A DNA stretch of 64,000 nucleotides from Clostridia bacterium (GTDB lineage: Bacteria > Bacillota > Clostridia > TANB77 > CAG-508). Positions 1,263-43,229 of the stretch are shown here, piece after piece. The stretch is from positions 22,855 to 86,854 of the forward strand of contig JAFSBT010000002.1 in the NCBI GenBank assembly GCA_017437145.1, read 5' to 3'. Under the pieces are notes generated by a model. It searched no databases and was not told the origin of the DNA. It was given only the letters and a program-made list of their open reading frames with translations. The position numbers and the translations under genes were made by a program. How positions within the stretch are numbered: the first letter of the stretch is position 1; each line of letters starts with the position of its first letter.

Positions 1263-1290
1263 GTAGGGGCGACCATTGATCGTCCGCAAA
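1263..1290. repeat. TGTAGGGG-family GC-rich palindromic element (half copy)
   Basis: tgtaggggcgaccattgatcgtccgc. Confidence 0.7.
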
Positions 1291-1323
1291 TGAAGAAAAA
1301 TAAAAAATAGAGAGGAGAAAATT

Positions 1324-3408
1324 ATGGCAGGTAGAGCATTTCCGTTAGAAAGAACAAGGAATATAGGAATAATGGCTCACATCGATGCAGGAAAAACAAC
1401 TACTACAGAGAGAATTCTTTTCTATACAGGTGTTAACCACAAAATAGGTGAAACTCACGAAGGTGAAGCAACAATGGACTGGATGGCACAAGAGCAAGAA
1501 AGAGGTATAACAATTACTTCTGCTGCAACAACATGTCAATGGTTAAACCATAGAATAAACATCATCGATACTCCTGGTCACGTTGACTTTACAGTTGAAG
1601 TTGAAAGATCTTTAAGAGTATTAGATGGTTCTGTTACAGTATTTTGTGCAAAAGGTGGAGTTCAACCTCAATCAGAAACTGTTTGGAGACAAGCAGATAA
1701 ATATGGTGTTCCAAGAATGGCATATGTAAATAAAATGGATACTACAGGAGCAGATTTCTTTGCTTGTGTAAACCAAATGAGAGATAGATTAAATGCAAAT
1801 GCAATTCCAGTAGAAATACCAGTAGGAGCTGAAGATACTTTTGCAGGAATAGTTGATTTGATAAAAATGAAAGCATTCATCCATAAAGATGATTTAGGAA
1901 AAGTTATTGAAGAAACAGATATTCCAGCAGAATTAATTGAAACAGCAGAAAAATATAGAAGTGAAATGATAGAAGCAGCTGCAGAACAAGATGATGAATT
2001 AATGATGAAATATCTTGATGAAGGAGAATTGTCAGAAGAAGAAATCAAAAAAGGTTTAAGACTAGGAACATTAGCTAACAAAATAGTTCCAGTTTGCTGT
2101 GGTTCATCATATAAAAACAAAGGTGTTCAAGAATTATTAAACTACATTGTAGAATTCATGCCATCACCATTAGATATACCAGATATAAAAGGTATTACAT
2201 TAGATGGAGAAGAAACAGAAAGAAAAACTTCTGATACAGAACCTTTCGCAGCTTTAGCATTTAAAATTGCAACAGACCCATTCGTTGGAAAATTATGTTT
2301 CTTTAGAGTATATTCAGGAACATTAGAATCAGGTTCAACAGTATTAAATGCTAACAAAGATAAAAAAGAAAGAATCGGAAGAATTCTTCAAATGCATGCT
2401 AACCACAGAGAAGATATAGACAAAGTTTATGCTGGAGATATTGCAGCAGCAGTTGGATTAAAAGAAGTTACAACAGGAGATACATTATGCGACATTCAAC
2501 ATCCAGTTATATTAGAATCTATGGAATTCCCAGAGCCAGTTATCGAAATAGCTATTGAGCCAAAAGATAAAGTAGCTCAAGAAAAAATGGGTATAGCACT
2601 TGCAAAATTAGCAGAAGAAGATCCAACATTCAAAACATATACAAACCATGAAACAGGTCAAACTATCATTGCAGGTATGGGAGAATTACACTTAGATATC
2701 ATCGTAGATAGATTAAAAAGAGAATTCAAAGTAGAATGTAATGTAGGTAAACCACAAGTTTCTTACAAAGAAACAATCAGAAACAAAGTAAGAGTTGAAG
2801 GAAAATTCATCCGTCAATCTGGTGGACGTGGACAATACGGACACGTATGGCTAGAAATGGAACCATTAGAGCCAGGTACAGGAATTCAATTCGAAAGCAA
2901 AATCGTTGGTGGTGTTGTTCCTAAAGAATACGTTAAACCAACAGAAGAAGGAATTCGTGAAGCTGCTGAAAGTGGTATCTTAGCTGGATATCCAGTTATA
3001 GACTTCAAAGCAACTTTAGTAGATGGTTCTTACCATGATGTTGACTCTTCTGAAATGGCGTTCAAAATTGCTGGTTCAATGGCATTCAAAGAAGGATGTA
3101 GACAAGGTAAAGCAGTAATTCTAGAACCTATTATGAAAGTTGAAGTAACAGTTCCTGAAGAATATATGGGAGATGTTATAGGAGACGTTAACTCAAGACG
3201 TGGAAGAATGGAAGGAATGGAAGCTAGAAGTGGAATGCAAATAATAAGAGCATTCATCCCATTATCAGACATGTTTGGTTATGCAACAGACTTACGTTCA
3301 AAAACACAAGGTAGAGGAACATATTCTATGGAACCAAGCCATTATGAAGAAGTTCCTAAATCTGTACTTGAAAAGATAGTAGCAGCTAGAACAAAGAAAG
3401 AAGACTAA
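1324..3408 (+). CDS. fusA: elongation factor G
   Basis: 694 aa, GTPase motifs [21 protein letters not shown]; str-operon context. Confidence 0.97.
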
Positions 3409-3414
3409 ATTTAA

Positions 3415-3536
3415 AAACGAATGAAATTGCGCATCTTGCGTTGTCAAACATCATAAAAATTTTTTCGATATACACACGTATAATCTCAAAAATTTTTACT
3501 CGTTTTCCTAGCAATATACACAATTTGCTTCGTTTT
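3415..3536. repeat. AAACGAA...TTCGTTT MITE-like element, 3' of fusA stop
   Basis: aaacgaatgaaattgcgcatcttgcgttgtcaaaca...ttactcgttttcc...gcttcgtttt; about 85% identical to 27237-27358. Confidence 0.75.
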
Positions 3537-3554
3537 AGGATAAAATCAAAGAAA

Positions 3555-3580
3555 TGTAGGGGCGGGTCCTGTGTCCGCCC
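3555..3580. repeat. TGTAGGGG-family element (half copy)
   Basis: tgtaggggcgggtcctgtgtccgccc, stem GGGCGG/CCGCCC. Confidence 0.7.
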
Positions 3581-3616
3581 AACAATACCATTTCGAAATT
3601 AAAAACAAAAAAGGTA

Positions 3617-3645
3617 TTGCAAAAAAATGCCAAATGTTATAAAAT
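3617..3645 (+). promoter_or_regulatory. sigma-A-type promoter for tuf
   Basis: TTGCAA-17 nt-TAAAAT about 110 nt upstream of tuf. Confidence 0.5.
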
Positions 3646-3756
3646 ACATTTGCTTAAAAAATTTTGTTATTAAATTTTTAAAATATAAAAGCGAAGTAAA
3701 TTCACTTTAAAAGTGAAAAGTACAAGTTGCTTCGTAATTTAAAGGAGGAATATTAA

Positions 3757-4959
3757 ATGGCAAAAGAGAAGTTCGAAAGAACAAAACCGCACGTTAATAT
3801 CGGTACAATCGGTCACGTTGACCACGGAAAAACAACAACAACAGCAGCTATAACAAAATGGTTAGGATTATTAGGAAAGGCTCAATTCGCAGCATATGAT
3901 CAAATCGACGGTGCTCCAGAAGAAAAAGCAAGAGGAATCACAATTAACACAGCACACGTTGAATATGAAACAGAAAATAGACACTATGCACACGTTGACT
4001 GTCCTGGACACGCTGACTACGTTAAAAACATGATTACAGGTGCAGCTCAAATGGACGGAGCTATATTAGTTGTTTCTGCAGCTGATGGTCCAATGCCTCA
4101 AACAAGAGAGCATATACTACTTGCAAGACAAGTTGGTGTTAAATATATCGTTGTTTACATGAACAAATGTGATATGGTTGACGACCCAGAATTATTAGAA
4201 TTAGTTGAAATGGAAGTTAGAGACTTATTATCTAGCTACGAATTCCCAGGAGACGAAATTCCAATCGTTAAAGGTTCTTCATTAAAAGTATTAGAAAGTT
4301 CAGCAACAGATCCAAATGCAGCTGAATATGCTTGTATGAAAGAATTAATGGATGCGGTAGATTCATATATACCAACTCCAGACAGACCAACAGATGGTGA
4401 CTTCTTAATGCCAGTAGAAGACGTATTCTCTATAACAGGTAGAGGAACAGTTGCTACAGGTAGAGTTGAAAGAGGAATTGTTAAAGTTTCAGACGAAGTT
4501 GAAATAGTTGGATTAGCAACAGAAGCTAAGAAAACAGTTGTAACAGGTGTTGAAATGTTCAGAAAATTATTAGACCAAGCAGAAGCTGGAGATAACATAG
4601 GAGTTCTTTTAAGAGGAATCCAAAGAACAGAAATCGAAAGAGGTCAAGTATTAGCTAAACCAGGTTCAATCAAACCTCATACAAAATTCAAAGCAGAAGT
4701 TTACGTTCTAACAAAAGAAGAAGGTGGACGTCATACACCATTCTTCAATGGATATAGACCACAATTCTATTTCAGAACAACAGACGTTACAGGATTAATT
4801 GATTTACCAGAAGGAACAGAAATGGTAATGCCAGGAGATAACATCACAATGACAATCGAATTAATCACACCAATCGCTATGGAAAAAGGATTAAGATTCG
4901 CTATCCGTGAAGGTGGAAGAACAGTTGGTTCTGGTATAGTTTCAGATATAATTGAATAA
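3757..4959 (+). CDS. tuf: elongation factor Tu
   Basis: 400 aa, [21 protein letters not shown] motifs; strong RBS AAAGGAGG. Confidence 0.97.
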
Positions 4960-4978
4960 TATTTATAAATTATAAAAA

Positions 4979-5010
4979 ATTAGAGGCAATTTATTGTCTC
5001 TAATTTTTTA
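4979..5010 (+). terminator. rho-independent terminator after tuf
   Basis: attagaggcaa-ttta-ttgtctctaat + T run. Confidence 0.7.
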
Positions 5011-5041
5011 TAATTTATATAGATGAATTGATTGCAAATGT

Positions 5042-5072
5042 TGTAGGGGCGAACTGTGTTCGCCAGTCTTCA
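5042..5072. repeat. TGTAGGGG-family element (half copy)
   Basis: tgtaggggcgaactgtgttcgcc + agtcttcag tail. Confidence 0.7.
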
Positions 5073-5226
5073 GAAAATAGGTGATAAAAAATCGCTCCTA
5101 CAAACACCCAACTACCAAATTCAAAAATCCAAACACAAAAATAACCAATTTACTATTGCTTTTTTTCCAATAAAATAATAAAATAAGTAAATAGAAAATA
5201 TATTATAGATAAGGAAGGATTTTTAC

Positions 5227-6246
5227 ATGAGAATTTTATTAGATGCTATGGGTGGAGATAATGCACCTGATGCAAATATAAAAGGTGCTGTAAAAGCAAT
5301 AAACGAAATCAAATCAGAAATTGTTTTAATTGGTAAAGAAGAAGTAATAAAAAATAGAATAAAAGAATTATATAATAAAGATGATATAAAAGAAATATCA
5401 GAAAGATTAAGCATAATTAATGCTACGGAAACAATCGAAATGGAAGATATACCTACACATGCTATAAAACATAAAAAGGATTCTTCAATGGTAGTTGGAT
5501 TTAAGTCATTAAAAGAAGGAAATGGAGATGTTTTTATTTCTGCTGGAAATTCAGGTGCACTTTTAACTGGTGCAACATTATTAGTAGGTAGAATAAAAGG
5601 TATTGATAGACCAGCACTTGCACCAATGTTACCCGCATATAAAAAAGGAGTAATGCTTGTTGATGCAGGAGCAAACACAAATTGTAAACCAATTAATTTA
5701 TTACAATTTGCGCAAATGGCTAATATATACCTTAAGAATATTTATAAAATGGAAAAACCAGTTATAGGATTATTGAATATTGGTACAGAAGAAACAAAAG
5801 GTAATGAATTAATGAAAGAAAGTTACCAATTATTAAAAGAAAATGCTAAAAAATATGATATAAACTTTATTGGAAATGTAGAAGGAAGAGAAGCACTTTC
5901 AGGAGAAATTGATGCTGTAGTTACTGATGGGTTTACAGGAAATATATTCTTAAAAACTGTTGAAGGTGTAGGAAAACTTGTAAAAAGAACATTAACAGAA
6001 AGTTTAAAAAGAAATTTATGGACTACACTATGTGCAGTTCCAGCATTACCATCAATAAAAAGATTTAGTAAAACCATGGATTATAAAGAATATGGTGGAG
6101 CATTATTTTTAGGAGTTAAAAAACCTGTAGTAAAAGCACATGGAAGTAGTGACGAATATTTATTTTACTGTACAATAAAACAAGCAGAAAAGTTTGCAGA
6201 AAGTAAAGCAGTGGATTTAATGATAAAAGAATTTGAAAAAATATAA
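5227..6246 (+). CDS. plsX: phosphate acyltransferase PlsX
   Basis: 339 aa, MRILLDAMGGDNAP N-terminus typical of PlsX; followed by acpP. Confidence 0.9.
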   Translation: MRILLDAMGGDNAPDANIKGAVKAINEIKSEIVLIGKEEVIKNRIKELYNKDDIKEISERLSIINATETIEMEDIPTHAIKHKKDSSMVVGFKSLKEGNGDVFISAGNSGALLTGATLLVGRIKGIDRPALAPMLPAYKKGVMLVDAGANTNCKPINLLQFAQMANIYLKNIYKMEKPVIGLLNIGTEETKGNELMKESYQLLKENAKKYDINFIGNVEGREALSGEIDAVVTDGFTGNIFLKTVEGVGKLVKRTLTESLKRNLWTTLCAVPALPSIKRFSKTMDYKEYGGALFLGVKKPVVKAHGSSDEYLFYCTIKQAEKFAESKAVDLMIKEFEKI

Positions 6247-6333
6247 AAAAAAGTATTGACAATAGTTTAATAACCATATAAGATTCTAAGTAGCAAATGT
6301 GACAAACATTTTTAAGGAGGTGTAAGAAAACCT

Positions 6334-6573
6334 ATGAGTTCAGAAGATATTTTTGAAAAAGTAAAAGAAATCATAATAGAACAATTAGGCGTAGCTGAAG
6401 CAGCTGTAACATTAGAAGCATCTTTCATAGATGATTTAGGAGCTGATTCATTAGACATAGTTGAATTGATAATGGCTTTAGAAGAAGAATTCGATTTAGA
6501 AATACCAGACGCAGATGCAGAAAAAGTTGTATCAGTTGGTGACGTAGTTGACTACATAAAAGAAAATATATAG
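6334..6573 (+). CDS. acpP: acyl carrier protein
   Basis: 79 aa acidic protein with LGADSLD phosphopantetheine-attachment motif. Confidence 0.9.
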
Positions 6574-6589
6574 ATTGAATATATAAAAA

Positions 6590-6617
6590 AAGAAAGGTAT
6601 AACCTTTCTTTTTTTGT
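6590..6617 (+). terminator. rho-independent terminator after acpP
   Basis: gaaaggt-ata-acctttc + T8. Confidence 0.7.
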
Positions 6618-6653
6618 AGTTTAATAACATAGTGTGAAATTAATTGCAGACGT

Positions 6654-6687
6654 TGTAGGGGCGATTTTAATCGCCCGCGCTTCAAAG
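6654..6687. repeat. TGTAGGGG-family element (half copy)
   Basis: tgtaggggcgattttaatcgcccgcgcttcaaag. Confidence 0.7.
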
Positions 6688-6719
6688 AAAATGCTATATT
6701 TTAATGATATGTATAATTT

Positions 6720-6901
6720 AAGCTAAAATATTAATTTTTGAAAATAAGTACCATTTGTCAAAAATTAATTATTTTAGCTTTTTAAAATTTAATTAAAAAT
6801 ATAATATTTTTAATTAAATCGATGAAATGCGAGTGTTATTTAAATTTTTCTACCCGATGATTTTGAAAAATCCAACTACCAAATTCTAAATTCCAAACTC
6901 C
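6720..6901. repeat. composite AT-rich intergenic element (AAGCTAAAATATTAATTTTTGA hairpin family)
   Basis: 62-bp perfect hairpin + second palindrome + CCAACTACCAAATTC tail; homologous to 11124 and 30281 copies. Confidence 0.7.
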
Positions 6902-7016
6902 ATTTGTCGAAAAAGATTGAAATATAGGCTTTTTTTGCATACGATTTAACTTGCTTTTTGGTATATATGTATAGTATAGTTGTAAAGTATGAAAAAACGA
7001 AAGAGGAGGAAAAATT

Positions 7017-7358
7017 TTGGAGGCTTCAAGGACTTATCATGGTGGAACTTTTTTAGGATGGGATGACTTACAAGAAGCAAAAATAAACCATAGAGTAGAG
7101 CTAGAATATTACCAAACAAAAAATGATATCAATAATATTTTAAATGAAGATACTACAAAATACGGAATAGAAGTATTAAAAAAAGAATATGAAAAAGATA
7201 GAATATATATTGAAAGCAATAATATAAAAAATGTATGTGATAGTTCAAAAAAAGTTATAGAAATAATAAATGTACTAAAGAAAAACAAAGTAACGCCAGT
7301 AGGATTACAAGATGTGTTAGATGATTTATTAACACAACAAAGAATGCATTTGGATTAA
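7017..7358 (+). CDS. hypothetical protein (113 aa)
   Basis: ORF with AGGAGGA RBS and TTG start; no recognisable family. Confidence 0.4.
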   Translation: MEASRTYHGGTFLGWDDLQEAKINHRVELEYYQTKNDINNILNEDTTKYGIEVLKKEYEKDRIYIESNNIKNVCDSSKKVIEIINVLKKNKVTPVGLQDVLDDLLTQQRMHLD

Positions 7359-7390
7359 ATCCAAATGTTATTTTTTTATTTGCTATCTAT

Positions 7391-7418
7391 TTACATGAAT
7401 TTGCATTTAGTATATAAT
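7391..7418 (+). promoter_or_regulatory. candidate promoter for glyA
   Basis: TTACAT-16 nt-TATAAT. Confidence 0.35.
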
Positions 7419-7450
7419 GCCTTTAAAAGTAAAATGAGGGGAGTGATTTT

Positions 7451-8686
7451 ATGCCTACCTTTGAGAATTTAAAAAAACAAGACAAACAAGTATATGAAAC
7501 TATAGAAAAAGAATTAGAAAGACAAAGAAATAAAATAGAGTTAATTGCTTCAGAAAATGTTGTAAGTGATAGCGTAATGGAAGCAATGGGTAGTTATATG
7601 ACAAATAAATATGCAGAAGGTTATCCAATGCATAGATATTATGGAGGATGCGAGTGTGTAGATGTCGTTGAAGACATTGCACGTGATAGATTAAAAGAAA
7701 TTTTTAGAGCAGAATATGCAAATGTACAACCTCATTCAGGAGCTCAAGCAAATATGGCAGTATATTTTGCAATATTAGAACCAGGAGATACAGTACTTGG
7801 AATGAATTTATCTCATGGTGGACATTTATCACATGGAAGTAAAGTTAATTTTTCAGGGAAATTATATAATTTCATACCTTATGGAGTAGACGAAAAAACA
7901 GGTAGAATAGATTATGATGAAGTAGAAAGATTAGCAATAGAAAATAAACCAAAACTAATTTTAGCAGGAGCTAGTGCATATCCAAGAGAAGTAGATTTTA
8001 AAAGATTTAGAGAAATAGCTGATAAGACAGGAAGTTTATTTATGGTAGATATGGCTCATATTGCTGGATTAGTTGCAGCAGGATTACATCAAAATCCAGT
8101 AGAATATGCTGATTTTGTAACAAGTACAACGCATAAAACATTAAGAGGACCAAGAGGTGGAATAATATTATGCAAAGAAGAATATGGTAAAGCAATAGAT
8201 AAAGCAGTTTTTCCAGGAATACAAGGTGGTCCATTAATGCATGTGATCGCATCAAAAGCAGTATGTTTTGGAGAAGCATTAAAACCTGAATTTAAAGAAT
8301 ATCAAGCACAAGTAATAAAAAATGCAAAAGTATTAGCTGAGGAATTAGTTAAATTAGGATTTAATTTAGTATCAGGAGGAACAGACAATCATTTAATTTT
8401 AGTAGATTTAAGAAACAAAGGAATAACAGGAAAAGAATTAGAAGAAAGATTAGATGAAATAGGAATAACACTTAATAAAAATTCAGTACCATTTGACACA
8501 GAAAAACCTACTATAACTAGTGGAGTAAGAATTGGAACACCAGCAGTTACAACAAGAGGATTTAAAGAACAAGAAATGGTAAAAATAGCAAAACTTATAA
8601 ACATGACAGTAGAAAAATATGAAGACAAGAAAGAAGAAATAAAAGCAGAAGTAGCAAAATTGTGCGCACAATTTCCATTATATTAA
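7451..8686 (+). CDS. glyA: serine hydroxymethyltransferase
   Basis: 411 aa, SHMT motifs ([27 protein letters not shown]). Confidence 0.95.
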
Positions 8687-8737
8687 TTATATTTAAAAAA
8701 TATATATGTATAATTAGAATAAAAAATAGCAAAGAAA

Positions 8738-8767
8738 TGTAGGGGGTGAACTGTGTTCGCCCGCAAA
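8738..8767. repeat. TGTAGGGG-family element (half copy)
   Basis: tgtagggggtgaactgtgttcgcccgcaa. Confidence 0.7.
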
Positions 8768-8881
8768 TATAATAAAAAGTAAAGAAACAAAAAAGGAGGA
8801 GGCAGGAATCAAAAACAAGCAGGACTAGGCAAACAAATAAAAATTTTTGAGATTGTACATAGGTACATCGATAAAATTTTT

Positions 8882-10927: not shown

Positions 10928-11003
10928 AATGTAATTTTTAATGGCATTTTTGCCTCCGTCCAAGCGATACTGTTCAATATCTAACTAAAATTTGTAGATT
11001 AAA

Positions 11004-11083
11004 TGTAGGGGCGACCATCGATTAGCTGTGCGAAATGAAATGAGCTACAGATAATACATGCCCTTGGGGTATTGGTCGTCCGT
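11004..11083. repeat. TGTAGGGG-family element, long composite form (about 80 bp)
   Basis: Near-identical to copy at 35721-35800; internal nested palindromes. Confidence 0.75.
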
Positions 11084-11123
11084 ACTTCGTAGACATAGCT
11101 ATATATTCTAATTTATATAAACT

Positions 11124-11263
11124 AAGCTAAAATATTAATTTTTGAAAATGAATGCTCATTTGTCAAAAATTAATTATTTTAGCTTTTTAAAATTTGACAG
11201 AAAATTTTAAATTTTCTGTCAAATCAAAATGCTGATTGGATTATTCTAATTTGGAATCCGATT
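11124..11263. repeat. composite AT-rich intergenic element, copy 2
   Basis: First 80 bp near-identical to copy 3; second palindrome tttgacagaaaatt/aattttctgtcaaa. Confidence 0.7.
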
Positions 11264-11406
11264 TCTTATTTAATAGTACTTTTCAAATAATTAATGAAAT
11301 AATAAAAAAAAATGTCGAAAAACTTTGTCAAAAAAGCTATTGACAAAAGCCTGAAGTTCTTAATATAATATTTTCGTAAAATGCATAGTTTAAAAGAGGT
11401 GATTTT

Positions 11407-11667
11407 ATGACTAATCAAGAAAAAAACAACAAACTTTTTGAAGAATATAAAAAGAAAACATATGAAGAATTAGATGAGTTAGAATCAAAATCTGATATAA
11501 CATATAATGACTATGTTATACTTTGCATTGCAAGAGGAGTTAAACAAATAGAAGATGGAATTCCTGGGATACCAGCAGACGAAGTTTTTAGCGAATTATT
11601 AGGAGATTATAACGATAGAGCAAATAATACTTTTACAACCAGCAAAAATCGACTTAATAAATATTAA
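11407..11667 (+). CDS. small protein, putative antitoxin partner of downstream RelE/ParE-like ORF
   Basis: 86-aa ORF directly abutting toxin-like ORF; no family recognised. Confidence 0.35.
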   Translation: MTNQEKNNKLFEEYKKKTYEELDELESKSDITYNDYVILCIARGVKQIEDGIPGIPADEVFSELLGDYNDRANNTFTTSKNRLNKY

Positions 11668-33930: not shown

Positions 33931-33945
33931 TTTGGAGGAATAGAT

Positions 33946-34524
33946 ATGTTCGAGGCTATTGCTAATTTTTTTAAGAAACTAAAGAAATCTGAAAAACAAG
34001 AAAATACAAATAGTAAAAATACTGCAAAAGAAAGATTGCATTTAGTTTTGATGCAAGATAGAGCAAATGTTTCGGCAGATTTCTTAGAATTAATGAAGCA
34101 AGAAATAATTGAAGTCATAAAAAAGTATATAGAAGTTGAAGAAGAAGCAATAGATGTAAGATTAACCAACAAAGTTCAAGATGATGGAACAACAGGTTCA
34201 CCTTTTTTATATGCAAATATTCCAATTTTAAATATAAGAAATGATATGAAAAAAGACAATGTGGATGTAAAACCTGATGTGAATAAAGAAGATAAGAAAG
34301 TAAGTAATAAGCAGGAAAAAGCTAAAATTGAGGTTGAAGAAAAAAAAGAAGATATTAAAAAAGAACAAAAAATAGAAGAAGAAAAAAAAGAAGAAAAGAA
34401 TAAGGATAAAAAAGAAAAAACGGAAAACAATAATACAGAAGAGAATAAAGAAAAAGATGAAAAAAAAGTGCAGGAAGTAGAAAATAAAAAAGATGAAGCT
34501 GAAGATAAAGATAAAAAAGAATAG
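33946..34524 (+). CDS. minE: MinE with about 100-aa Lys/Glu-rich C-terminal extension
   Basis: N-terminal about 90 aa matches MinE; remainder low-complexity KE repeats. Confidence 0.8.
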   Translation: MFEAIANFFKKLKKSEKQENTNSKNTAKERLHLVLMQDRANVSADFLELMKQEIIEVIKKYIEVEEEAIDVRLTNKVQDDGTTGSPFLYANIPILNIRNDMKKDNVDVKPDVNKEDKKVSNKQEKAKIEVEEKKEDIKKEQKIEEEKKEEKNKDKKEKTENNNTEENKEKDEKKVQEVENKKDEAEDKDKKE

Positions 34525-34526
34525 TG

Positions 34527-34554
34527 AATGCGGAGAATTTAATCTCCGCATTTG
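34527..34554 (+). terminator. terminator after minE
   Basis: tgcggaga..tctccgca. Confidence 0.5.
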
Positions 34555-34594
34555 TTAGAATAAAAGAAAAATATTAATGTAATAAAGGAATGCC

Positions 34595-35696: not shown

Positions 35697-35720
35697 ACAA
35701 ATATATTTTTATTACAGATT

Positions 35721-35800
35721 TGTAGGGACGACCATCGATTAGCTGTGCGAAATGCAATGAGCTACAGATAATACATGCCCTTGGGGTATTGGTCGTCCGT
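35721..35800. repeat. TGTAGGGG-family element, long composite form
   Basis: About 97% identical to 11004-11083. Confidence 0.75.
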
Positions 35801-35849
35801 AAAATTTAATTTATAAAAAATAATATTACCAACAAAATTTGGAGGAGAA

Positions 35850-36809
35850 ATGATACAAAAATTAAGAATAGGAAATGTAGAACTAGAAAATAACATATTA
35901 TTAGCACCAATGGCAGGAGTAACAGATAAATCATTTAGGATAATAAGCAGAAAATATAGTAATCCAGGCTTAGTTTACACAGAAATGGCAAGTAGTAAAG
36001 CTATATTTTATAGAGATATAAAAACTCAAAAATTACTTGATATAGAAGGCGAAAAGAGACCAATTGCAATACAATTATTTGGAAGCGACCCATCTATTAT
36101 GGCAGAAAGCAGCAAGGAAATCGAAAAGATGGCAGATATAATAGACATAAATATGGGATGTCCTGCTCCAAAGATTGTAAAAAATGGGGATGGAAGCAAA
36201 TTACTCTTAAATCCAGAATTAATAAGAGAAATCATAAAATCAGTAGTAGCATCAGTAAATAAACCAGTTACAGTAAAAATAAGGAAAGGCTGGGACAAAA
36301 ATAATATTGTTGCTACAGAAGTAGCTCAAATAGCTGAAAAAGCAGGAGCAGCTGCTTTAACAATACATGGAAGAACAAGAGAAGAATATTATAGCGGGAG
36401 TGTAGATTTAGATATTATAAAAAAAGTGAAGGAAAAAGTTAAAATACCAGTAATAGGTAATGGAGATGTAAAATCTATACAAGATGCTAAGAAAATGTTT
36501 GAATATACAGGTGTAGATGGAATAATGATAGGAAGAGGAGCTTTAGGAAATCCATGGCTTATAGGAGAAATAATAAGTGGGCAAGAAACAAATATTTTAA
36601 ATGAAGAAAAATTAAATTGTATAAAAGAACATTTGAATCTAGAAATTATAGAAAAAGGAGAATACGTAGGTATTCGAGAATTTAGAAAACATTTATGTTG
36701 GTATCTAAAAAATATGAAAGAATCAAGCAAAATAAGAGCAAAAGTAAATACAATAGAAAATGTAAATGAATTAATTCAAATATTAGAAGAATATTTTTCA
36801 AACATATAA
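35850..36809 (+). CDS. dusB: tRNA-dihydrouridine synthase
   Basis: 319 aa, MAGVTD..INMGCPAPK..HGRTRE motifs. Confidence 0.9.
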   Translation: MIQKLRIGNVELENNILLAPMAGVTDKSFRIISRKYSNPGLVYTEMASSKAIFYRDIKTQKLLDIEGEKRPIAIQLFGSDPSIMAESSKEIEKMADIIDINMGCPAPKIVKNGDGSKLLLNPELIREIIKSVVASVNKPVTVKIRKGWDKNNIVATEVAQIAEKAGAAALTIHGRTREEYYSGSVDLDIIKKVKEKVKIPVIGNGDVKSIQDAKKMFEYTGVDGIMIGRGALGNPWLIGEIISGQETNILNEEKLNCIKEHLNLEIIEKGEYVGIREFRKHLCWYLKNMKESSKIRAKVNTIENVNELIQILEEYFSNI

Positions 36810-36810
36810 G

Positions 36811-36856
36811 TGTAGGGGTAGACGCCTACGGCTGCCCATGTGACCCTGTAGGGTCA
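36811..36856. repeat. TGTAGGGG-family variant with TIR
   Basis: tgtaggggtagacgcctacggctgccc...ccctgtagggtca. Confidence 0.6.
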
Positions 36857-37050
36857 TTTTTTTGTAATTAAATTATAAAAAAAATTATAAAACATATAAA
36901 ACCGGGAACAATATAAGTAATGAATTCCTTAATATATATTTAAACAAAAGAATGACAGTTTACATATTATATAAAGAGATAGATTAATGATTTGATATAA
37001 AGATTAAAATATATATTAAAATTCTAAACATACAAACAGGAGTGAAGAAT

Positions 37051-37401
37051 ATGGTAATAAAAAGAGGAGATATGTTTTACGCGGATTTAAGTCCAGTTAT
37101 AGGTTCAGAACAAGGAGGAATAAGACCAGTATTAGTAATACAAAATGATACAGGAAATAAATATAGTCCAACAGTAATTGTTTCAGCAATAACATCACAG
37201 TTAGGAAAAAATAAATTACCAACACATATAGAATTAGATTCAGAAGAATTTGGATTAAAATCAGATTCAGTAGTATTAGCAGAACAAATAAGAACAATAG
37301 ATAAAAGTAGACTAAAGGAAAAAATTGGACATATAGATGATAATAAAATAATGAACAGAATAAATGGAGCTTTAGGAGTAAGTTTCGGCTTAGATAGATA
37401 G
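37051..37401 (+). CDS. mazF: MazF/EndoA-family endoribonuclease toxin
   Basis: [33 protein letters not shown] typical MazF; no upstream mazE ORF. Confidence 0.85.
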
Positions 37402-37410
37402 GGAGGAATA

Positions 37411-37438
37411 AAAAAATCCGCTGAAAGCGGATTTTTTA
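37411..37438. terminator. bidirectional terminator between mazF(+) and SPFH(-)
   Basis: aaaaaatccgc-tgaaa-gcggatttttt. Confidence 0.75.
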
Positions 37439-38341
37439 TTATTTTTTGTCATCTTTCATTATCTCTTTAATTGCACCTAAACTACTTAAAGTTTGTGTTG
37501 CTTCAAATGGAATGAAAACTTTATTTGCTTCTCCATGAGCAATTTCAGTAAGAGCTTCTAATGATTTTAATTGAATTAGTTTTTCATCAGGGTCAGCTTT
37601 CTTAATAGTTTCATAAATCATTTGGATTTCTTTTGCTTTAGCTATTGCTACTTCTTTTATAGCTTCAGCTTCACCGGCTGCACGTCTTATTCTAGCTTCT
37701 TTATCAGCTTCAGCTTGTAATATAGCAGCTTCTTTTTGTCCTTCAGCTATTGTAATAGCTGCTTGTTTTTCTCCTTCTGCTTGAAGAATAGCAGCTCTTT
37801 TATTTCTTTCTGCATTCATTTGTTTTTCCATTGCATCACGGATATCAACAGGTGGATTAATGTCTTTAATTTCTACACGATTAACTTTACAACCCCATTT
37901 ATCTGTTGCTTCATCTAATAAAATTCTTAATTGATTATTTATTACATCTCTTGAACTAAATGTTGAATCTAAGCTCATTTTACCAACTATATCACGAATA
38001 GTTGTAATTGCTAAATATTCAATACCTTTTCTTAAAGATTGAATTTCATAAACTGCTTTTGCAGGGTCTGTTATTTGATAAAATACAACTGTGTCAATTG
38101 TAATTGTAACATTATCTTCTGTAATAACTCCTTGAGGTGGAATATCCATTGTTTGTTCTTTTAAGCTTACTACGCTTCTTACATGGTCAAAGAAGGGAAT
38201 AATTATTGTAAGACCAGCATCTGCAATTTTGTGAAATTTACCAAGTCTTTCAATAATATAAACTTCAGCTTGTTTAACAATTTTGATTGATGAAAATGCT
38301 ATTATTAAAATAATAGCAAGTAAAACGATTAAAAATATCAT
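37439..38341 (-). CDS. SPFH/band-7 (stomatin/flotillin-like) protein
   Basis: 300 aa, N-terminal TM, SPFH core, coiled-coil AEAEK repeats. Confidence 0.85.
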   Translation of the reverse strand: MIFLIVLLAIILIIAFSSIKIVKQAEVYIIERLGKFHKIADAGLTIIIPFFDHVRSVVSLKEQTMDIPPQGVITEDNVTITIDTVVFYQITDPAKAVYEIQSLRKGIEYLAITTIRDIVGKMSLDSTFSSRDVINNQLRILLDEATDKWGCKVNRVEIKDINPPVDIRDAMEKQMNAERNKRAAILQAEGEKQAAITIAEGQKEAAILQAEADKEARIRRAAGEAEAIKEVAIAKAKEIQMIYETIKKADPDEKLIQLKSLEALTEIAHGEANKVFIPFEATQTLSSLGAIKEIMKDDKK

Positions 38342-38367
38342 TTTTTACCTCCTAAAAAATATATAAT

Positions 38368-38802
38368 TTAAATTAATTCTTGAACTACGGCCTTTACACC
38401 ATCTATATTCAAGACTTTAACTTCTGTACCAACAGGAATAATTTTTTCATTTTCGCTTTTAGCAGACCAAATTTCGCCATTTACTTTTATTTGTCCAGTT
38501 GCCTCAGTAGGATTAATTTCAATAGTAACAATTCCTTTTTTTTCAATAATTGAATAAGCATTTGTTTTTACTGTTTTAGAATTAATATATTTATTGACTA
38601 AAGGTTTTGTTAATGGTATAAGTGCTGCAGATGAAATTACAAATACTATACATTGTATTGCAAGGTCATCTGTAATAAAACTTGTGAGCATTGCTAAAAG
38701 TGCTCCTATTCCAAGCCAAAATATTAAAAAACCGGAAGTGAAAATTTCAAATATAAAAAATATTCCAGTAGCAATTAGCCAAATATACCACATAATGTTC
38801 AC
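38368..38802 (-). CDS. NfeD-family membrane protein
   Basis: 144 aa, 2 TM plus OB-fold-like C-terminus, immediately upstream partner of SPFH gene. Confidence 0.75.
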   Translation of the reverse strand: MNIMWYIWLIATGIFFIFEIFTSGFLIFWLGIGALLAMLTSFITDDLAIQCIVFVISSAALIPLTKPLVNKYINSKTVKTNAYSIIEKKGIVTIEINPTEATGQIKVNGEIWSAKSENEKIIPVGTEVKVLNIDGVKAVVQELI

Positions 38803-38908
38803 CTTCCTATCTAATTTACTTCAATATTATACTATAAAGAAAGAAAAAAATAAATAATAAAATGAAAAAATCATAACAAAATTGTTATGATTTAAAAATA
38901 TAAAATAT

Positions 38909-39406
38909 TTATGGTAAGAAAAATTGTTTCAAGAAAGGAACGTTCCAAAAGATGAAGACAATCATTGAAACAAAAATTATTGTTAATAATATAGCTACTA
39001 AATCTCTATTACGTTCAAGTTTATCTTTTTTTGTTTCATTATATATTGTTTGTCCTATAGCAGATATATATTTTTTTAAATTAATTTTATTGTTTGAATC
39101 AGAATTTTCAGTCTTTGCAAGAATAGATTTTTTATTTTCAGGATTCTTTTTAGCTGAAGAATTTGAATAATTATAATAGTCTTTATTATAAAGTTTAAGT
39201 TTTAAATCGTAATCAGTTTTTGCATTTTTATCAGAAAGAACATTATAAGCTTCAGTTATATCTTTAATTTTATTTTCAAAAAAGTAAGAATCTTTATTTG
39301 TTTGTAAATCAGGATGATATTTTTTTATTAATGCTCTATAAGCTTTTTCAATAACTTCAGGGGAAGCATTTTGACTTACTTCTAATATTTCATAATAATT
39401 TTTCAT
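38909..39406 (-). CDS. J-domain (DnaJ-like) membrane protein
   Basis: [10 protein letters not shown]...KKYHPD J-domain, C-terminal TM. Confidence 0.7.
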   Translation of the reverse strand: MKNYYEILEVSQNASPEVIEKAYRALIKKYHPDLQTNKDSYFFENKIKDITEAYNVLSDKNAKTDYDLKLKLYNKDYYNYSNSSAKKNPENKKSILAKTENSDSNNKINLKKYISAIGQTIYNETKKDKLERNRDLVAILLTIIFVSMIVFIFWNVPFLKQFFLP

Positions 39407-39429
39407 ATTTTATCACATGTCCTTTCTTA

Positions 39430-40056
39430 CTAATTTAAGAAAAAGAATAATTCTTTTAAATAGCTTCTAAGAGATGGAATTTGCCAACATATATAAGCAA
39501 TTACGAAAATTATAATAGCTGTTAAAACTAATGAAATAAATCCTTTACAATAATCCTTAAACGTTTTTTTATATCTAATTTTATAGCCTAAATTTTTAAG
39601 TGTATTTATATATGCATCATTATAGGCTTGATTTACAGCATCATTATATGATTGATTAACTGCATCATTGTATGTCTGATTTACTGTTTGGTTGTAATTT
39701 TTTTGTGGTTCAACATTAGCTTGATTTTTTAAATTAGAGCTATATTGTTGTAAATAATTAATTTTGTTTTCAAGTTCAATACAATAATTTTTTAAATTTT
39801 CATAATCTTCATAATTAACAGAAGGCATTTGAGAATCTTTAAACTCTTTTAATTCTATATCATAAGACGCTCTTTTTTCAGAATTTGAAAGTATTTCATA
39901 AGCTTCTGAAATTTCTTTGAATTTAGCTTCAGCAAATTCTTTATTATCAGGATTTGTATCTGGATGATATTTTTTTGCTAAAAATTTATATACTTTACTA
40001 ATAGTTTCTTCTGAAGCAGTTTCATTTACTTCTAGAATTTCATAATAATTTTTCAT
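39430..40056 (-). CDS. J-domain (DnaJ-like) membrane protein, paralogue
   Basis: Same N-terminal J-domain, Asn/Gln-rich repeat linker, C-terminal TM. Confidence 0.7.
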
Positions 40057-40173
40057 AAAATTAATTCCTTTTTTTAATATTAAAATAATAATAACATATA
40101 ATGAAAAAAATGTAAAATTAAATAAGAAAATATGCAGAAAAATTTAATTTATATAATTTAATAAATTTGATTA

Positions 40174-40235
40174 TGTAGGGGAGAACTTTGTTCTCCCGTT
40201 TCTTCGAAGGAGGGCGAACAAAGTTCGCCCCTACA
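40174..40235. repeat. TGTAGGGG-family element, full dimeric copy
   Basis: tgtaggggagaactttgttctccc-gtttcttcgaagga-gggcgaacaaagttcgcccctaca; TIR TGTAGGGG/CCCCTACA. Confidence 0.8.
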
Positions 40236-40344
40236 ATATATAATAAAGAAATTTTTTTAAGTACTTGCTACTTTTTTTAATTTAGTGTAATATAATACAG
40301 TATCGAATGAAAGTAAAAAAGTAAACGAAGCTAAAGAAAGGAGA

Positions 40345-40520
40345 AGAGTAAATTTATAGCGCCAGAACAATAATAAATTTATTGTTGACGAGGATTAGAA
40401 CTTATCGAAATTTCGGCGGATGGTTCTATGGCAATAAAGTATGCCATTAGTATTACACAAAAACTAATAGCAATATTAGAACAAAAGTAATATATACTTT
40501 GGATTTACTAATTTATACTT
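40345..40520 (+). ncRNA. glmS ribozyme: glmS ribozyme/riboswitch
   Basis: Core AGCGCCAGAAC...GACGAGG...UUAUCGAAAUUUCGGCGGAUGG matches glmS ribozyme consensus; lies in glmS 5' leader. Confidence 0.8.
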
Positions 40521-40556
40521 TCAATTCCAGTAAATAATTTAGGAGGTATTTAAACT

Positions 40557-42380
40557 ATGTGTGGAATTGTAGGTTACATAGGAAACAAAAAAGCAAGTCC
40601 AATATTAATAAATGGACTTTTAAGATTAGAATATAGAGGATATGATTCAGCAGGAATTGCAACTGTAGAAGAAGAAAAAATTTCAGTAATGAAAAATAAG
40701 GGAAGAGTAAATAATTTAAATGACTTAGAAGGAATTAACAACTTGAAAGGAACTATAGGAATTGCTCATACAAGATGGGCAACACATGGAAAACCATCAA
40801 AAGAAAATTCTCATCCTCATATGGATAATAGCAATTCTTTTGCTGTAGTTCATAATGGTATTATAGAAAACTATCAAGAACTAAGAAAAAAATTAACTGA
40901 CAAAGGATATGAATTTTTATCAGAAACAGATACAGAAGTTATACCAAATTTAATACATTATTATTATAAAAAAGAAAATGATGTTCTAAAAGCAATATCA
41001 AGAGCATGTAAAAAGTTAAAAGGAAGTTATGCAATAGAAGTTTTATCAAAATATGAACCAGATAAAATGATTATTGCAAGAAAAGATAGTCCATTAGTAG
41101 TAGGAAAAGGAAACGGAGAAAATTATATAGCTTCAGATATTCCAGCTATTTTATCATATACAAAAGATTTTTACTTTTTAGATGATAATGAAATTGTAGA
41201 ATTAACAAGAGATAGTATAACATTTTACAATCAAGAATTAGAACAAATAAGAAAAAGAGTAAAAGTTATTGATTGGGGTGCAGCAGCTGCTGAAAAAGAT
41301 GGTTATGATGATTTCATGCTAAAAGAAATTCATGAACAACCAAATGCTATTAGAGAAACAATTGGTGCAAAATTAGATAATGGTAAAATTGAATTAGAGG
41401 ATTTGAATTTCTCAAAAGAGTATTTAGAAAGTTTAAATAAAATATATATAGTAGCATGTGGTACAGCTATGCATGCAGGGTTAGTTGCAAAAACAATAAT
41501 TGAAAAATTGTGTAAAATACCTACAGAGGTAGATATTGCGTCTGAATTTAGATATAGAGAACCATTAATAGATGAAAAAACATTGGCAATATATATTAGT
41601 CAATCTGGAGAAACAGCTGACACAATCGCAGCCTTAAAACTTGCAAAATCAAAAGGCGCTAAAACTATAGCGATTTCAAATGTAATAGGAAGCTCAATAA
41701 CAAGAGAAGCAGATTATTCAATTTACACTCATGCTGGACCAGAAATTGCGGTAGCTTCTACAAAAGCATATACATCTCAAGTTGTATTATTAAGTGTGTT
41801 AGCAATATATTTTGCAGAAGTATTAGAGTCTTCAGAGGATAAATTAATTAATAAATTGAAAAAAGCTATATTAGAATTGCCTGCACAAGTTGAAGAAATT
41901 TTAAAGGATGTTTCATCTATAAAAAGGTTTGCAAAAAAAATATATAAAGAAACAGATATGTTCTTCTTAGGAAGAGGAACTGATTATGCTGTAGCTTTAG
42001 AAGGTTCATTAAAATTAAAAGAAATTTCATATATCCATTCTGAAAGCTATGCAGCAGGTGAATTAAAACATGGACCAATTGCTTTAATTGAAAATGGAAT
42101 AACAGTAGTTTCAATTATAACAAATAAAGATTTAATGGATAAATCACTTAGCAACATACAAGAAGTAATAACACGTGGGGCAAAAATAATGATGGTTACA
42201 AATCAAGAAATGGATAATAAAAATTTTGATTGCATAATAAATATACCAAAAACAAATCCATTAATATCACCAATACTATCTGTAGTTCCACTTCAGGTAT
42301 TAGCATATTATATATCTAAGGAAAAAGGGCTAGATGTTGACAAACCAAGAAATCTAGCAAAATCAGTAACAGTAGAATAA
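40557..42380 (+). CDS. glmS: glutamine--fructose-6-phosphate aminotransferase
   Basis: 607 aa, N-terminal MCGIVGY, two SIS domains, C-terminal SVTVE. Confidence 0.95.
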   Translation: MCGIVGYIGNKKASPILINGLLRLEYRGYDSAGIATVEEEKISVMKNKGRVNNLNDLEGINNLKGTIGIAHTRWATHGKPSKENSHPHMDNSNSFAVVHNGIIENYQELRKKLTDKGYEFLSETDTEVIPNLIHYYYKKENDVLKAISRACKKLKGSYAIEVLSKYEPDKMIIARKDSPLVVGKGNGENYIASDIPAILSYTKDFYFLDDNEIVELTRDSITFYNQELEQIRKRVKVIDWGAAAAEKDGYDDFMLKEIHEQPNAIRETIGAKLDNGKIELEDLNFSKEYLESLNKIYIVACGTAMHAGLVAKTIIEKLCKIPTEVDIASEFRYREPLIDEKTLAIYISQSGETADTIAALKLAKSKGAKTIAISNVIGSSITREADYSIYTHAGPEIAVASTKAYTSQVVLLSVLAIYFAEVLESSEDKLINKLKKAILELPAQVEEILKDVSSIKRFAKKIYKETDMFFLGRGTDYAVALEGSLKLKEISYIHSESYAAGELKHGPIALIENGITVVSIITNKDLMDKSLSNIQEVITRGAKIMMVTNQEMDNKNFDCIINIPKTNPLISPILSVVPLQVLAYYISKEKGLDVDKPRNLAKSVTVE

Positions 42381-42397
42381 ATTAATATATAAGAAAA

Positions 42398-42433
42398 AAT
42401 GCACTTAAGGTATAAGTCTTAAGTGCTTTTTTA
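42398..42433 (+). terminator. terminator after glmS
   Basis: gcacttaag-gtataagt-cttaagtgc + T6. Confidence 0.7.
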
Positions 42434-42436
42434 GTA

Positions 42437-42462
42437 TGTAGGGGCGGGCCCCGTGTCCGCCC
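42437..42462. repeat. TGTAGGGG-family element (half copy)
   Basis: tgtaggggcgggccccgtgtccgccc. Confidence 0.7.
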
Positions 42463-42568
42463 TTTTGTTAATAATTAATCTCATAATAAAATTTAATTAG
42501 GGTATTGCAAAATAAATTTAATATGATAAAATAAAAAACAGAAAATTTGTTTGCAAGGAGAAGTGAAA

Positions 42569-43168
42569 ATGTTTGCATATATAAAAGGAAATTTAGAACA
42601 AAAAACAAATAACTTTGTTGTAATAGATGTAGGTGGAATAGGATATAGAATATTTATGTCGTCAAAAGCAATTGAAAATGTAGGAGGCTTAGGGGAGAAA
42701 GTTAAAGTATATACACATTATTATGTAAGAGAAGATAACATTAGTTTATATGGATTTAATTCAAATGAGGAATTAAGAATGTTTGAATTATTAATATCTG
42801 TTAGTGGAATAGGAGCAAAATCTGCAATTGCAATGCTTTCTGAAATAAGTCCATCAAGTTTTGCCTTAGCTGTTATTTCTGATGATATTTCAAAATTAGT
42901 TAAAGTACCAGGAATAGGAAAGAAAACAGCAGCAAGAATAGTGTTGGAGTTAAAGGATAAATTAAAAACAGAAGAAGCAATAGAACAAACAGAAGAATTA
43001 GTTTGTGCAATTGATGATAGCAGTAAAGAATGTGAAGCACTTGCAGCACTTCAAGTTTTAGGATATACAAGAAAAGAAATAGAAAATGTACTTCACAAAA
43101 TAGATGTCAAAAATTTAGAATTAGAAGAAATAATAAAACAAGCATTAAAGTTCTTGTCAAGGAATTAG
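42569..43168 (+). CDS. ruvA: Holliday junction helicase subunit RuvA
   Basis: MFAYIKG...GVGYRI, HhH motifs; start at ATG after AAGGAGAAG RBS. Confidence 0.9.
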   Translation: MFAYIKGNLEQKTNNFVVIDVGGIGYRIFMSSKAIENVGGLGEKVKVYTHYYVREDNISLYGFNSNEELRMFELLISVSGIGAKSAIAMLSEISPSSFALAVISDDISKLVKVPGIGKKTAARIVLELKDKLKTEEAIEQTEELVCAIDDSSKECEALAALQVLGYTRKEIENVLHKIDVKNLELEEIIKQALKFLSRN

Positions 43169-43191
43169 AGATAAAAATATATTGCAAACGT

Positions 43192-43229
43192 TGTAGGGGG
43201 GCGGTCTTGACCGACCCAGGACAGGTCAA
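43192..43229. repeat. TGTAGGGG-family element (truncated copy of 29143 type)
   Basis: tgtagggggggcggtcttgaccgacccaggacaggtcaa. Confidence 0.65.

Follow-up and report, generated by a model that had tools for sequence, protein, structure and literature searches.

What are the short GC-rich palindromes that recur between the genes of an AT-rich gut Clostridia genome, and how did they come to be there? We examined them in a stretch of 64,000 nucleotides (the window, whose coordinates are used throughout) of a Clostridia bacterium (assembly GCA_017437145.1, contig JAFSBT010000002.1, positions 22,855 to 86,854). The host is a spore-forming Clostridia metagenome-assembled genome (MAG) from ruminant gut, with spore-germination genes just upstream of the window; the window's proteins are in NCBI as MBQ6991365 and others. 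An earlier note, made from the letters alone, had reported 17 copies of an unrecognized element family with TGTAGGGG at its ends. Our analysis makes it very likely that these elements are GTAG-tagged repetitive extragenic palindromic (REP) sequences and their inverted dimers (REP doublets forming hairpins, REPINs), a mobile family tied, in related genomes, to REP-associated tyrosine transposases (RAYTs) of subclass 2.4. The class of element is known, and no published description of this particular family or its host range appears to exist in the searchable literature, where its sequence returned only unrelated primers and barcodes.

Anatomy of the repeat family

The head TGTAGGGG occurs 17 times in the window, at the positions already reported, against 0.44 ± 0.66 (maximum 3) in dinucleotide-preserving shuffles, a 40-fold excess over chance. 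Seventeen heads are not 17 elements, however: they fall at 15 loci, the dimers at 29142–29192 and 40174–40235 each adding a second head on the minus strand, and relaxed searches found three further loci whose heads differ by one base (15418, CGTAGGGG; 25553, TGTAAGGG; 35721, TGTAGGGA). The resulting 18 elements comprise 12 singles, four dimers (two intact, two decayed or truncated) and two composites of 81 nt. All lie within the first 44.5 kb, about one per 2.5 kb of core DNA, as GC-rich islands in 28%-GC surroundings; over 2-kb windows the GC content runs from 23 to 34%, with a positive GC skew over nearly the whole length. The elements are as follows (z, folding as single-stranded DNA).

1262–1287, plus strand: single REP with a decayed GCGACC-type stem and exact head, rpsG-fusA spacer; z = -0.5
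3555–3581, plus strand: single REP with a GCGGGTCC-type stem, fusA-tuf spacer; z = -2.5
5042–5103, plus strand: decayed REPIN after tuf, with intact GCGAAC-type left arm and CTTCAGAA spacer; z = -3.4; its degenerate right arm, GTAGGAG, occupies 5095–5101 on the minus strand
6654–6678, plus strand: single REP after acpP with a GCGAT-TTTA-ATCGC stem; z = -3.6; repeat families D8 and D1; ATTGCAGACGT before it, CTTCAAAG and a 146-nt AT-rich module after it
8738–8764, plus strand: single REP, GCGAAC-type variant with one T.G wobble, glyA-topA spacer; repeat family D3
11004–11084, plus strand: 81-nt double-foot composite after topA, GCGACCA and TGGTCGTC arms around a 55-nt insert with two small hairpins; z = -3.2; repeat family D12
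13827–13852, plus strand: single GCGAAC-type REP in ORF 12985–14130, in frame as VGANCVRP; z = -4.9
15418–15444, plus strand: single GCGAAC-type REP, head CGTAGGGG, in ORF 14183–16819 (cgs), in frame as VGANCVRP
15469–15492, plus strand: decayed REP in ORF 14183–16819, 50 nt past the 15418 REP, in frame as VGAGAMLQ; z = 0.1
21196–21221, plus strand: single GCGAAC-type REP between response-regulator and histidine-kinase genes; repeat family D3
25553–25580, plus strand: single REP after a ferredoxin gene, head TGTAAGGG, bulged GCAGAC..GGCTGC stem; z = -6.4
29142–29192, no strand assigned: intact REPIN (double foot) in the porA-porB spacer, perfect TGTAGGGG/CCCCTACA ends, arms of different stem subtype; -19.4 kcal/mol folded as DNA, z = -5.4
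30217–30241, plus strand: single REP after porB with a GCGAT-type stem, then CTTCGAAG and the 146-nt module as at 6654
35721–35801, plus strand: second 81-nt composite, head TGTAGGGA, rodA-dusB spacer
36811–36837, plus strand: single REP with a GTAGAC..GGCTGC stem, starting 2 nt past the dusB stop
40174–40235, no strand assigned: intact REPIN between dnaJ (minus strand) and the glmS ribozyme, spacer TTTCTTCGAAGGA; -21.6 kcal/mol, z = -7.6
42437–42462, plus strand: single REP with a GCGGGC-type stem after glmS and its terminator; z = -2.2
43192–43228, plus strand: truncated REPIN in the ruvA-rarA spacer, a GGCGGTC-type arm plus part of a second arm

The unit measures 25–60 nt and consists of an unpaired (T)GTAG followed directly by a hairpin with three G-C pairs at its base, GTAG standing immediately 5′ of the GGG of the stem base in the 17 heads. 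Stems have 6–9 bp and loops mostly 3–5 nt (up to 9 in the 3555 fold). When 12 copies were folded as single-stranded DNA, 10 formed the expected hairpin with TGTAG unpaired (z from -2.0 to -7.6), in line with the half form of head plus short hairpin that the earlier note had drawn; the hairpins at 1262 and 15469 have decayed, with z near 0. The two dimers that it had described as having perfect inverted ends proved intact. In dimers, two units are inverted around a short spacer, and the predicted folds are either two small hairpins or one long one.

The window contains no fewer than six stem types, and the inner stem varies among copies yet remains complementary. The stems, labeled as GCGAAC, GAGAAC, GCGAT, GCGGGC, TCGGTC, CAGGTC and GCGACC types, include GGGCGAAC-TGT-GTTCGCCC, GGGAGAAC-TTT-GTTCTCCC, GGGCGAT-TTTA-ATCGCCC, GGGCGGGC..GTCCGCCC, GGGTCGGTC-TT-GACCGACCC, GGGCAGGTC-AA-GACCTGCCC, GGGCGACCA..TGGTCGTCC and the bulged GGGCAGAC..GGCTGCCC; a GTAG-hairpin REP reads TGTAGGGGCGAACTGTGTTCGCCCG. 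The GAGAAC and GCGAAC arms of the 40174 REPIN represent a compensated change from C:G to A:T, and loci fetched from other genomes show 72 distinct perfect stem types behind the same head. A formal count of stem covariation would be circular, because copies were selected for having a hairpin. A strand-specific structure test (59 G.T wobbles against four A.C mismatches on the GTAG strand) was rejected as an ascertainment artefact, since the pattern used to find copies already dictates GGGG in the 5′ arm and bars A.C at the first stem positions; at positions judged free of that constraint, distinct variants show no clear excess of either.

Larger assemblies also recur. The two 81-nt composites differ at 2 of 81 positions (97.5% identity), which bears out the earlier description of a roughly 80-bp form present twice at about 97%. 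The CTTC(R)AAG tail noted at the same time is real at 5042, 6654, 30217 and 40174, with CTTCGTAG after the 11004 composite, and turns out to be both the spacer of the dimeric form and the opening of a longer module, itself repeated between genes and about 270 nt in size, which runs from REP through CTTCRAAG and an AT-rich palindromic block of 146 nt to a CCAACTACCAAATTC block of 46 nt. The module is found after acpP and porB, with partial versions after topA and tuf, and its arrangement, judged from the sequence, is a mosaic like that of bacterial interspersed mosaic elements (BIMEs). Copies of the 146-nt block are found at 6718–6863, 11123–11268 and 30280–30425, and copies of the 46-nt block at 5090–5135, 6854–6899, 27371–27416 and 30425–30470.

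Location and orientation

Most copies lie 2–150 nt past a stop codon, namely those of rpsG, fusA, tuf, acpP, glyA, topA, a response regulator, a ferredoxin, porA, porB, rodA, dusB, glmS and ruvA, and one dimer occupies a divergent region upstream of the glmS ribozyme. The intergenic placement first proposed thus stands for 15 of the 18 elements; the other three (13827, 15418 and 15469) are in frame within open reading frames (ORFs) of a split cyclic beta-1,2-glucan synthase (cgs) gene, where they read VGANCVRPQ or VGAGAM. All 12 single copies have their head on the plus strand, which is the coding strand and the strand of positive GC skew alike.

The region from 44.5 to 64 kb holds no element, against 18 in the 44.5 kb of core DNA (P ~0.001 under uniform spread). 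Its contents are a 5-kb segment that a close relative lacks and a conjugative element bearing type IV secretion genes, with only a truncated PBP5-type gene between them. Confinement to the window, which the earlier note had named as an outcome that would count against the family, is not what we see: another head lies on the same contig, 8.6 kb upstream (L001:71), four more lie in a contig of the same population (L003:1-2555), and others in further genomes.

Turnover between relatives

Two relatives allowed orthologous spacers to be compared: a close one (L144; GlmS 97.7% identical in amino acids, flanking genes 87–96% nucleotide-identical) and a more distant one (L141; elongation factor G, the fusA product, 91% identical in amino acids). 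REP content differs from L144 at all five shared spacers. Between rodA and dusB, the 35721 composite lies in about 130 nt of extra spacer that L144 lacks; at the 3′ end of dusB, the REP of L144 has a different stem type from that at 36811; at the 40174 site, L144 keeps the same TTTCTTCGAAG core with AT-rich arms instead of REPIN arms; and the 42437 REP after glmS is absent. The ruvA-rarA spacer measures 84 nt here and 12 nt in L144, and the extra 72 nt carry the 43192 REP, inserted cleanly between the ruvA stop and the rarA ribosome-binding site with no target duplication beyond a single A. The AT-rich arms around TTTCTTCGAAG in L144 are themselves inverted copies of the 46-nt block type.

No REP was found in 20 kb of L141, in which the rpsG-fusA spacer has 28 nt (197 nt here) and the fusA-tuf REP is also absent. 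Gain here and precise loss there would both produce such differences between spacers, and on either account the elements are dispensable and undergo fast turnover. Being polymorphic among relatives and missing both from 20 kb of L141 and from the acquired DNA at 44.5–64 kb, they would, on this comparison of sequences, be mobile as well as dispensable.

The same REP in other genomes

In a search of one genome per species, the commonest form of the REP, the 23-mer TGTAGGGGCGAACTGTGTTCGCC, was found exactly in at least 118 stretches from at least 70 assemblies. Among the matches listed, most carriers come from animal, human and termite guts and belong to Oscillospiraceae, Ruminococcus, Acutalibacteraceae, Christensenellaceae or unclassified Clostridia MAGs; GC contents span 24–63%. 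A few MAGs of other phyla also appear there, as do isolates of Acetanaerobacterium elongatum, Acinetobacter corruptisaponis and A. halotolerans. The 23-mer is there usually half of an inverted dimer with a spacer of 20–30 nt, and dimers are the majority form in other genomes.

At the Acinetobacter loci (L034, L037 and L094), the A. corruptisaponis 23-mer adjoins a RAYT fragment 54–58% identical to clostridial RAYTs. The presence of the clostridial 23-mer in Acinetobacter suggests, at the level of sequence, either transfer between phyla or extreme conservation. A plasmid or phage vehicle finds little support: distant RAYT relatives (<34% identity) occur on 7 of 72,556 plasmids, and the 23-mer on only four viral contigs.

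RAYT genes associated with the REP

Clustering of ORFs revealed RAYT-like ORFs or fragments in nine of the 23-mer loci among the matches listed, the full-length ones of about 160 aa and with an HUH motif. Two full-length proteins were scored. Their best match is the NCBIfam REP-associated tyrosine transposase NF047646, at 66–72 bits (curated cut-off 80); both match Pfam Y1_Tnp, where only one of them clears the 23-bit cut-off, and one matches PDB 4ER8, the E. coli TnpA-REP. Homologue searches gave 2,820 matches for one query and at least 7,981 for the other (among 8,000 candidates scored), and some close homologues carry the JGI label “REP element-mobilizing transposase RayT”. The proteins show MPNHIHMI or MPDHIHFI, IWQKSF, and YIENNP, YIEYNP or YIDTNP. 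By these motifs, rather than by phylogeny, they fit TnpAY1 subclass 2.4, which corresponds to Group 4 of Bertels. Many RAYT homologues were found on contigs shorter than 2 kb, and REPs are probable break points in metagenome assemblies.

Other genomes with the identical REP display the REPtron layout, with arrays of the same REP types on both sides of the RAYT (L131, L125, L108, L122 and L067). In two human-gut relatives (L131:6489 and L125:6510), the stop codon of the RAYT, TAG, is supplied by the GTAG head of the REP downstream, so that the end of the gene overlaps the first flanking REP. In human-gut relatives, RAYTs of two diverged versions sit at one and the same chromosomal site, with pilin genes on either side; as far as sequence and synteny indicate, this is the single-copy, vertically inherited pattern described for RAYTs (PMC5581495).

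RAYT genes also contain REPs. In most of about 240 homologues (proteins P0001–P0120 and P0155–P0274), and likewise at loci L027, L067, L080 and L137, the gene harbors two in-frame inverted copies of its own REP, one after beta-1 and one after the HUH strand, and the pair usually co-varies as reverse complements, loop bases included. Co-varying pairs are VGASIARP/GRAMLAPT, VGATIGRP/GRPMVAPT, VGARIARP/GRAMRAPT, VGATCGRP/GRPQVAPT, VGATFGRP/GRPKVAPT, VGAIIDRP/GRSMIAPT and VGAPIGRP/GRPMGAPT; the mixed pairing VGASIARP/GRPMVAPT is common, with 15 occurrences. Some RAYT genes carry extra whole-REPIN insertions (e.g., P0006 and P0012). REPs embedded in RAYT ORFs of subclass 2.4 were already reported by Quentin et al. 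(PMC6006769); their paired, co-varying arrangement is newly noted here and may be missing from that report, to judge from the parts of it that were consulted.

Comparison with known systems

A REP is defined by a 5′ GT[AG]G lying 0–2 nt from the foot of a hairpin (PMC6006769; PMC3733652), and the elements of the window have it. They also have the stem of a REP (a GC-rich basal 7–20 bp with a short loop, or a bulged long hairpin) and its distribution in many, mostly extragenic copies downstream of genes, 18 in 44.5 kb; the structures at 29142–29192 and 40174–40235 are REPINs, two inverted REPs with a short spacer that can form one long hairpin. The associated proteins of related genomes combine NH[IFV]H, WQ and YIxNNP with in-frame REPs, as subclass 2.4 does.

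The closest likeness is to the REPs and REPINs of Proteobacteria (REP/BIME of E. coli; Pseudomonas fluorescens). Both have GTAG on the 5′ side of a GC-based hairpin, form inverted dimers around a short spacer and lie mostly outside genes, just past their ends; both also show several stem subfamilies per genome, a BIME-type mosaic with spacer modules and, in related genomes here, a single-copy Y1 transposase flanked by the same repeats. Unlike those systems, the present host is an AT-rich (28% GC) Clostridia MAG; the E. coli RAYT has DHLH and YIHYNP where the related RAYTs here have NH[IV]H and YIxNNP; and proteobacterial REP families are usually species- or genus-specific, whereas the 23-mer spans at least 70 species-level genomes of 24–63% GC.

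TnpAY1 subclass 2.4 (PMC6006769), or RAYT Group 4 (PMC5581495), agrees in its HUH, W and Y motifs, and the former source also describes “long” REPs with a stem base of three G-C pairs, double-foot forms and in-frame REPs in the tnpA-REP gene. It differs in its described distribution, plentiful in Cyanobacteria and Bacteroidetes and sporadic in other groups (PMC6006769), and Group 4 is associated with modestly repeated 16-mers, about 14 per replicon (PMC5581495), against about one REP per 2.5 kb of core DNA here. The surveys consulted list Proteobacteria, Cyanobacteria, Chloroflexi and the PVC group as hosts of GTAG REPs and do not list Firmicutes (PMC3733652); they mention Clostridia only for another RAYT group and for IS200.

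The analogies first drawn to REP/BIME, Correia and Rickettsia palindromic elements (RPEs) fared unequally. That to REP/BIME is upheld by the published GTAG-REP definition and by the identical sequence tied to RAYTs elsewhere; the other two fail in detail, as the present units span only 25–60 nt, with no long terminal inverted repeats (TIRs) and no TA duplication. Correia elements of Neisseria are 100–155 bp long, with 26-bp TIRs, a TA duplication and an IHF site. RPEs are 100–150 bp long and are not known to have a GTAG head or an associated Y1 transposase. With Correia elements the present family shares abundant intergenic palindromes near gene ends that can be co-transcribed, and none of the Correia features just named was seen in its elements; with RPEs and intragenic REPs (Di Nocera 2013) it shares palindromes in frame in genes, here the three in the cgs ORFs. 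Readings as CRISPR, attC sites, IS200/IS605 ends or riboswitches were discarded on account of irregular spacing, no adjacent cas, integrase, tnpA or tnpB gene in the window, and no Rfam match.

Mechanism and alternative explanations

By analogy with E. coli TnpA-REP, a RAYT would act as an HUH/Y1 tyrosine transposase that recognizes GTAG plus hairpin on single-stranded DNA, cuts beside it and re-joins the strands; the one at work here would belong to TnpAY1 subclass 2.4 (Bertels Group 4). We infer that such a RAYT, encoded in this genome, moved the elements. Copies would have spread to places that tolerate them, mostly just past stop codons and occasionally in frame in protein loops. Movement through single-stranded DNA at the replication fork would fit all singles having their GTAG on the leading-strand sequence. 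Once transcribed, the hairpins would now act, if at all, as barriers at mRNA 3′ ends and not as terminators.

Several observations weigh against a mobile family driven by a RAYT. Transposition or cleavage has, to our knowledge, yet to be demonstrated for any RAYT of this clade, and the two scored proteins stay below the NF047646 cut-off. A tblastn search with three RAYTs found none in the window or in L001–L006, about 11 kb of extra sequence from the same genome (~75 kb in total). The AT-rich homologues P0158, P0156 and P0160, considered as this genome's RAYT, belong to other organisms; their contigs carry syntenic single-copy RAYTs with flanking REPs. Singles exceed dimers in the window (12 vs. 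four, plus two composites) and several stems have decayed, the pattern expected of a population without an active transposase. As to orientation, which the earlier note had proposed to check, replication and transcription are inseparable in a window with nearly all genes on the plus strand, and a count made in other low-GC genomes gave a weak bias relative to flanking genes (46 same vs. 33 opposite, not significant), halves of decayed dimers having probably been scored as singles.

Some of these points would be accounted for by a relic population, that is, REPs whose lineage lost its RAYT and which persist as remnants unable to move, either in decay or retained only at sites of use to the host. 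We regard this as unlikely, though worth keeping in mind. It would explain why no RAYT turned up in ~75 kb, why twelve singles face two intact dimers, and why decay is visible in stems (1262 and 15469), partners (5042 and 43192) and heads (15418, 25553 and 35721). Against it, every spacer shared with a relative 87–96% identical in nucleotides differs in its REP content, which is the comparison of presence and absence that the earlier note had called for, and the two 81-nt copies are only 2 nt apart. Moreover, the sequence examined amounts to only ~2–3% of a typical genome, and RAYTs are usually single-copy (PMC5581495).

It is very improbable that the elements are host-evolved RNA structures, terminators or mRNA-stabilizing 3′ structures that arose in place and were never mobile DNA. 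Most copies do lie 2–150 nt past a stop codon in sense orientation, and E. coli REPs stabilize upstream mRNA. However, a plus-strand scan for intrinsic terminators found no REP hairpin followed by a T-run on the transcribed strand; it flagged only a separate hairpin with a T-run past the dusB REP (36840–36857, to 36864), and the terminators of tuf (4970–5013) and glmS are distinct AT-rich hairpins. Many copies are within operons (rpsG-fusA, porA-porB, response regulator-kinase and ruvA-rarA), identical 23–26-mers recur at unrelated loci and in at least 70 other genomes, and copies are absent from the orthologous spacers of relatives. Rfam, searched at the gathering threshold and at E ≤ 0.1, matched only the glmS ribozyme in the window. 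A secondary, exapted role of the hairpins in mRNA stability may nevertheless exist, by analogy with the E. coli REPs.

The perfect 8-nt terminal inverted repeats of the dimers, TGTAGGGG and CCCCTACA, could recall a classical Correia-like miniature inverted-repeat transposable element (MITE) derived from a DDE-transposase insertion sequence, with TIRs at both ends and target-site duplication, but this we all but discount, as most copies consist of a half unit that lacks a second end, the 72-nt insertion is clean with no target duplication beyond a single A, and the fetched loci hold no DDE transposase sharing these ends and do hold Y1 transposases that share them.

Other features of the window

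The Cgs/NdvB-like gene that hosts the three in-frame copies is apparently split into about five consecutive ORFs at 12033–20220 (316, 381, 878, 857 and 302 aa). The three that were aligned are colinear with residues 304–2527 of PDB 8RF9, ORF 12985–14130 being the glycosyltransferase part, and an independent assembly reproduces the split sequence almost exactly (one indel across L002). The locus may represent a pseudogene in decay or, alternatively, a true multi-part enzyme. The glmS ribozyme (40347–40503; Rfam RF00234, 94.7 bits) lies upstream of glmS, with the 40174–40235 REPIN ~110 nt further upstream.

In the REP-free region, 44492–49516 is a 5-kb segment missing in L144, where rarA directly precedes the PBP5 gene; it contains a GC-rich ORF of 121 aa (44691–45056) with no Pfam match and a radical-SAM/HD protein, and is probably a recently acquired island. 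From about 50400 to 64000 extends an integrative conjugative element with PrgI, VirB4-like, TrbL, TraG/T4CP, a sortase, a TED/SpaA adhesin and an M23 peptidase. The neighboring PBP5-type carboxypeptidase gene encodes 256 aa here and 406 aa in L144, so it was seemingly truncated by insertion of the conjugative element.

Contig L003:1-2555, from the same sample, corresponds to 30557–33110 of the window and diverges upstream of minD: two paralogous genes of ~346 aa replace the poly(A) polymerase gene and a 347-aa dockerin-like gene, a (CA)n microsatellite is present, and L144 has a 517-aa “head fibre” protein at the site. Sequence comparison points to a strain-variable surface-protein locus. The 3′ end of minE (34315–34521) encodes a Lys/Glu-rich low-complexity tail made of degenerate AAAGAAGAA repeats, and MinE has 192 aa here and 181 aa in L144. 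A second repeated family of spacer modules, ~125–140 nt long, forms the pairs 1105–1242/27695–27832 and 3411–3536/27232–27358 (86–92% identical within pairs), which share the motifs CTTGCGTTGT and CCTAGCAATA, lie upstream of fusA, tuf, porD and porA and have no Rfam match; they may serve highly expressed genes as promoter or leader modules.

Meaning for the family and its hosts

Nearly all work on REPs and REPINs has concerned Proteobacteria, and the dense population described here extends their host range to a major gut clade. It also explains GC-rich hairpins in 28%-GC spacers, which could otherwise be mistaken for terminators or regulatory RNAs in MAG annotation. A REP common to many species offers material to test whether the inheritance of REPIN-RAYT systems is always vertical, and the cultured Acetanaerobacterium elongatum and two Acinetobacter species that carry the 23-mer are usable for experiments.

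Beyond this, we tentatively put forward a wider and rather speculative hypothesis: that gut Clostridia carry an uncatalogued and unusually conserved REPIN-RAYT system, with the same 23-nt REP in at least 70 species-level genomes and some copies in other phyla, in which the RAYT gene is itself a REPIN-like substrate by virtue of the co-varying inverted REP pair around its HUH-coding segment. If true, the RAYT gene would be a self-regulating switch or a master copy spawning the genomic REPINs, and a system thought to be vertically inherited and lineage-divergent would have undergone horizontal spread or extreme constraint.

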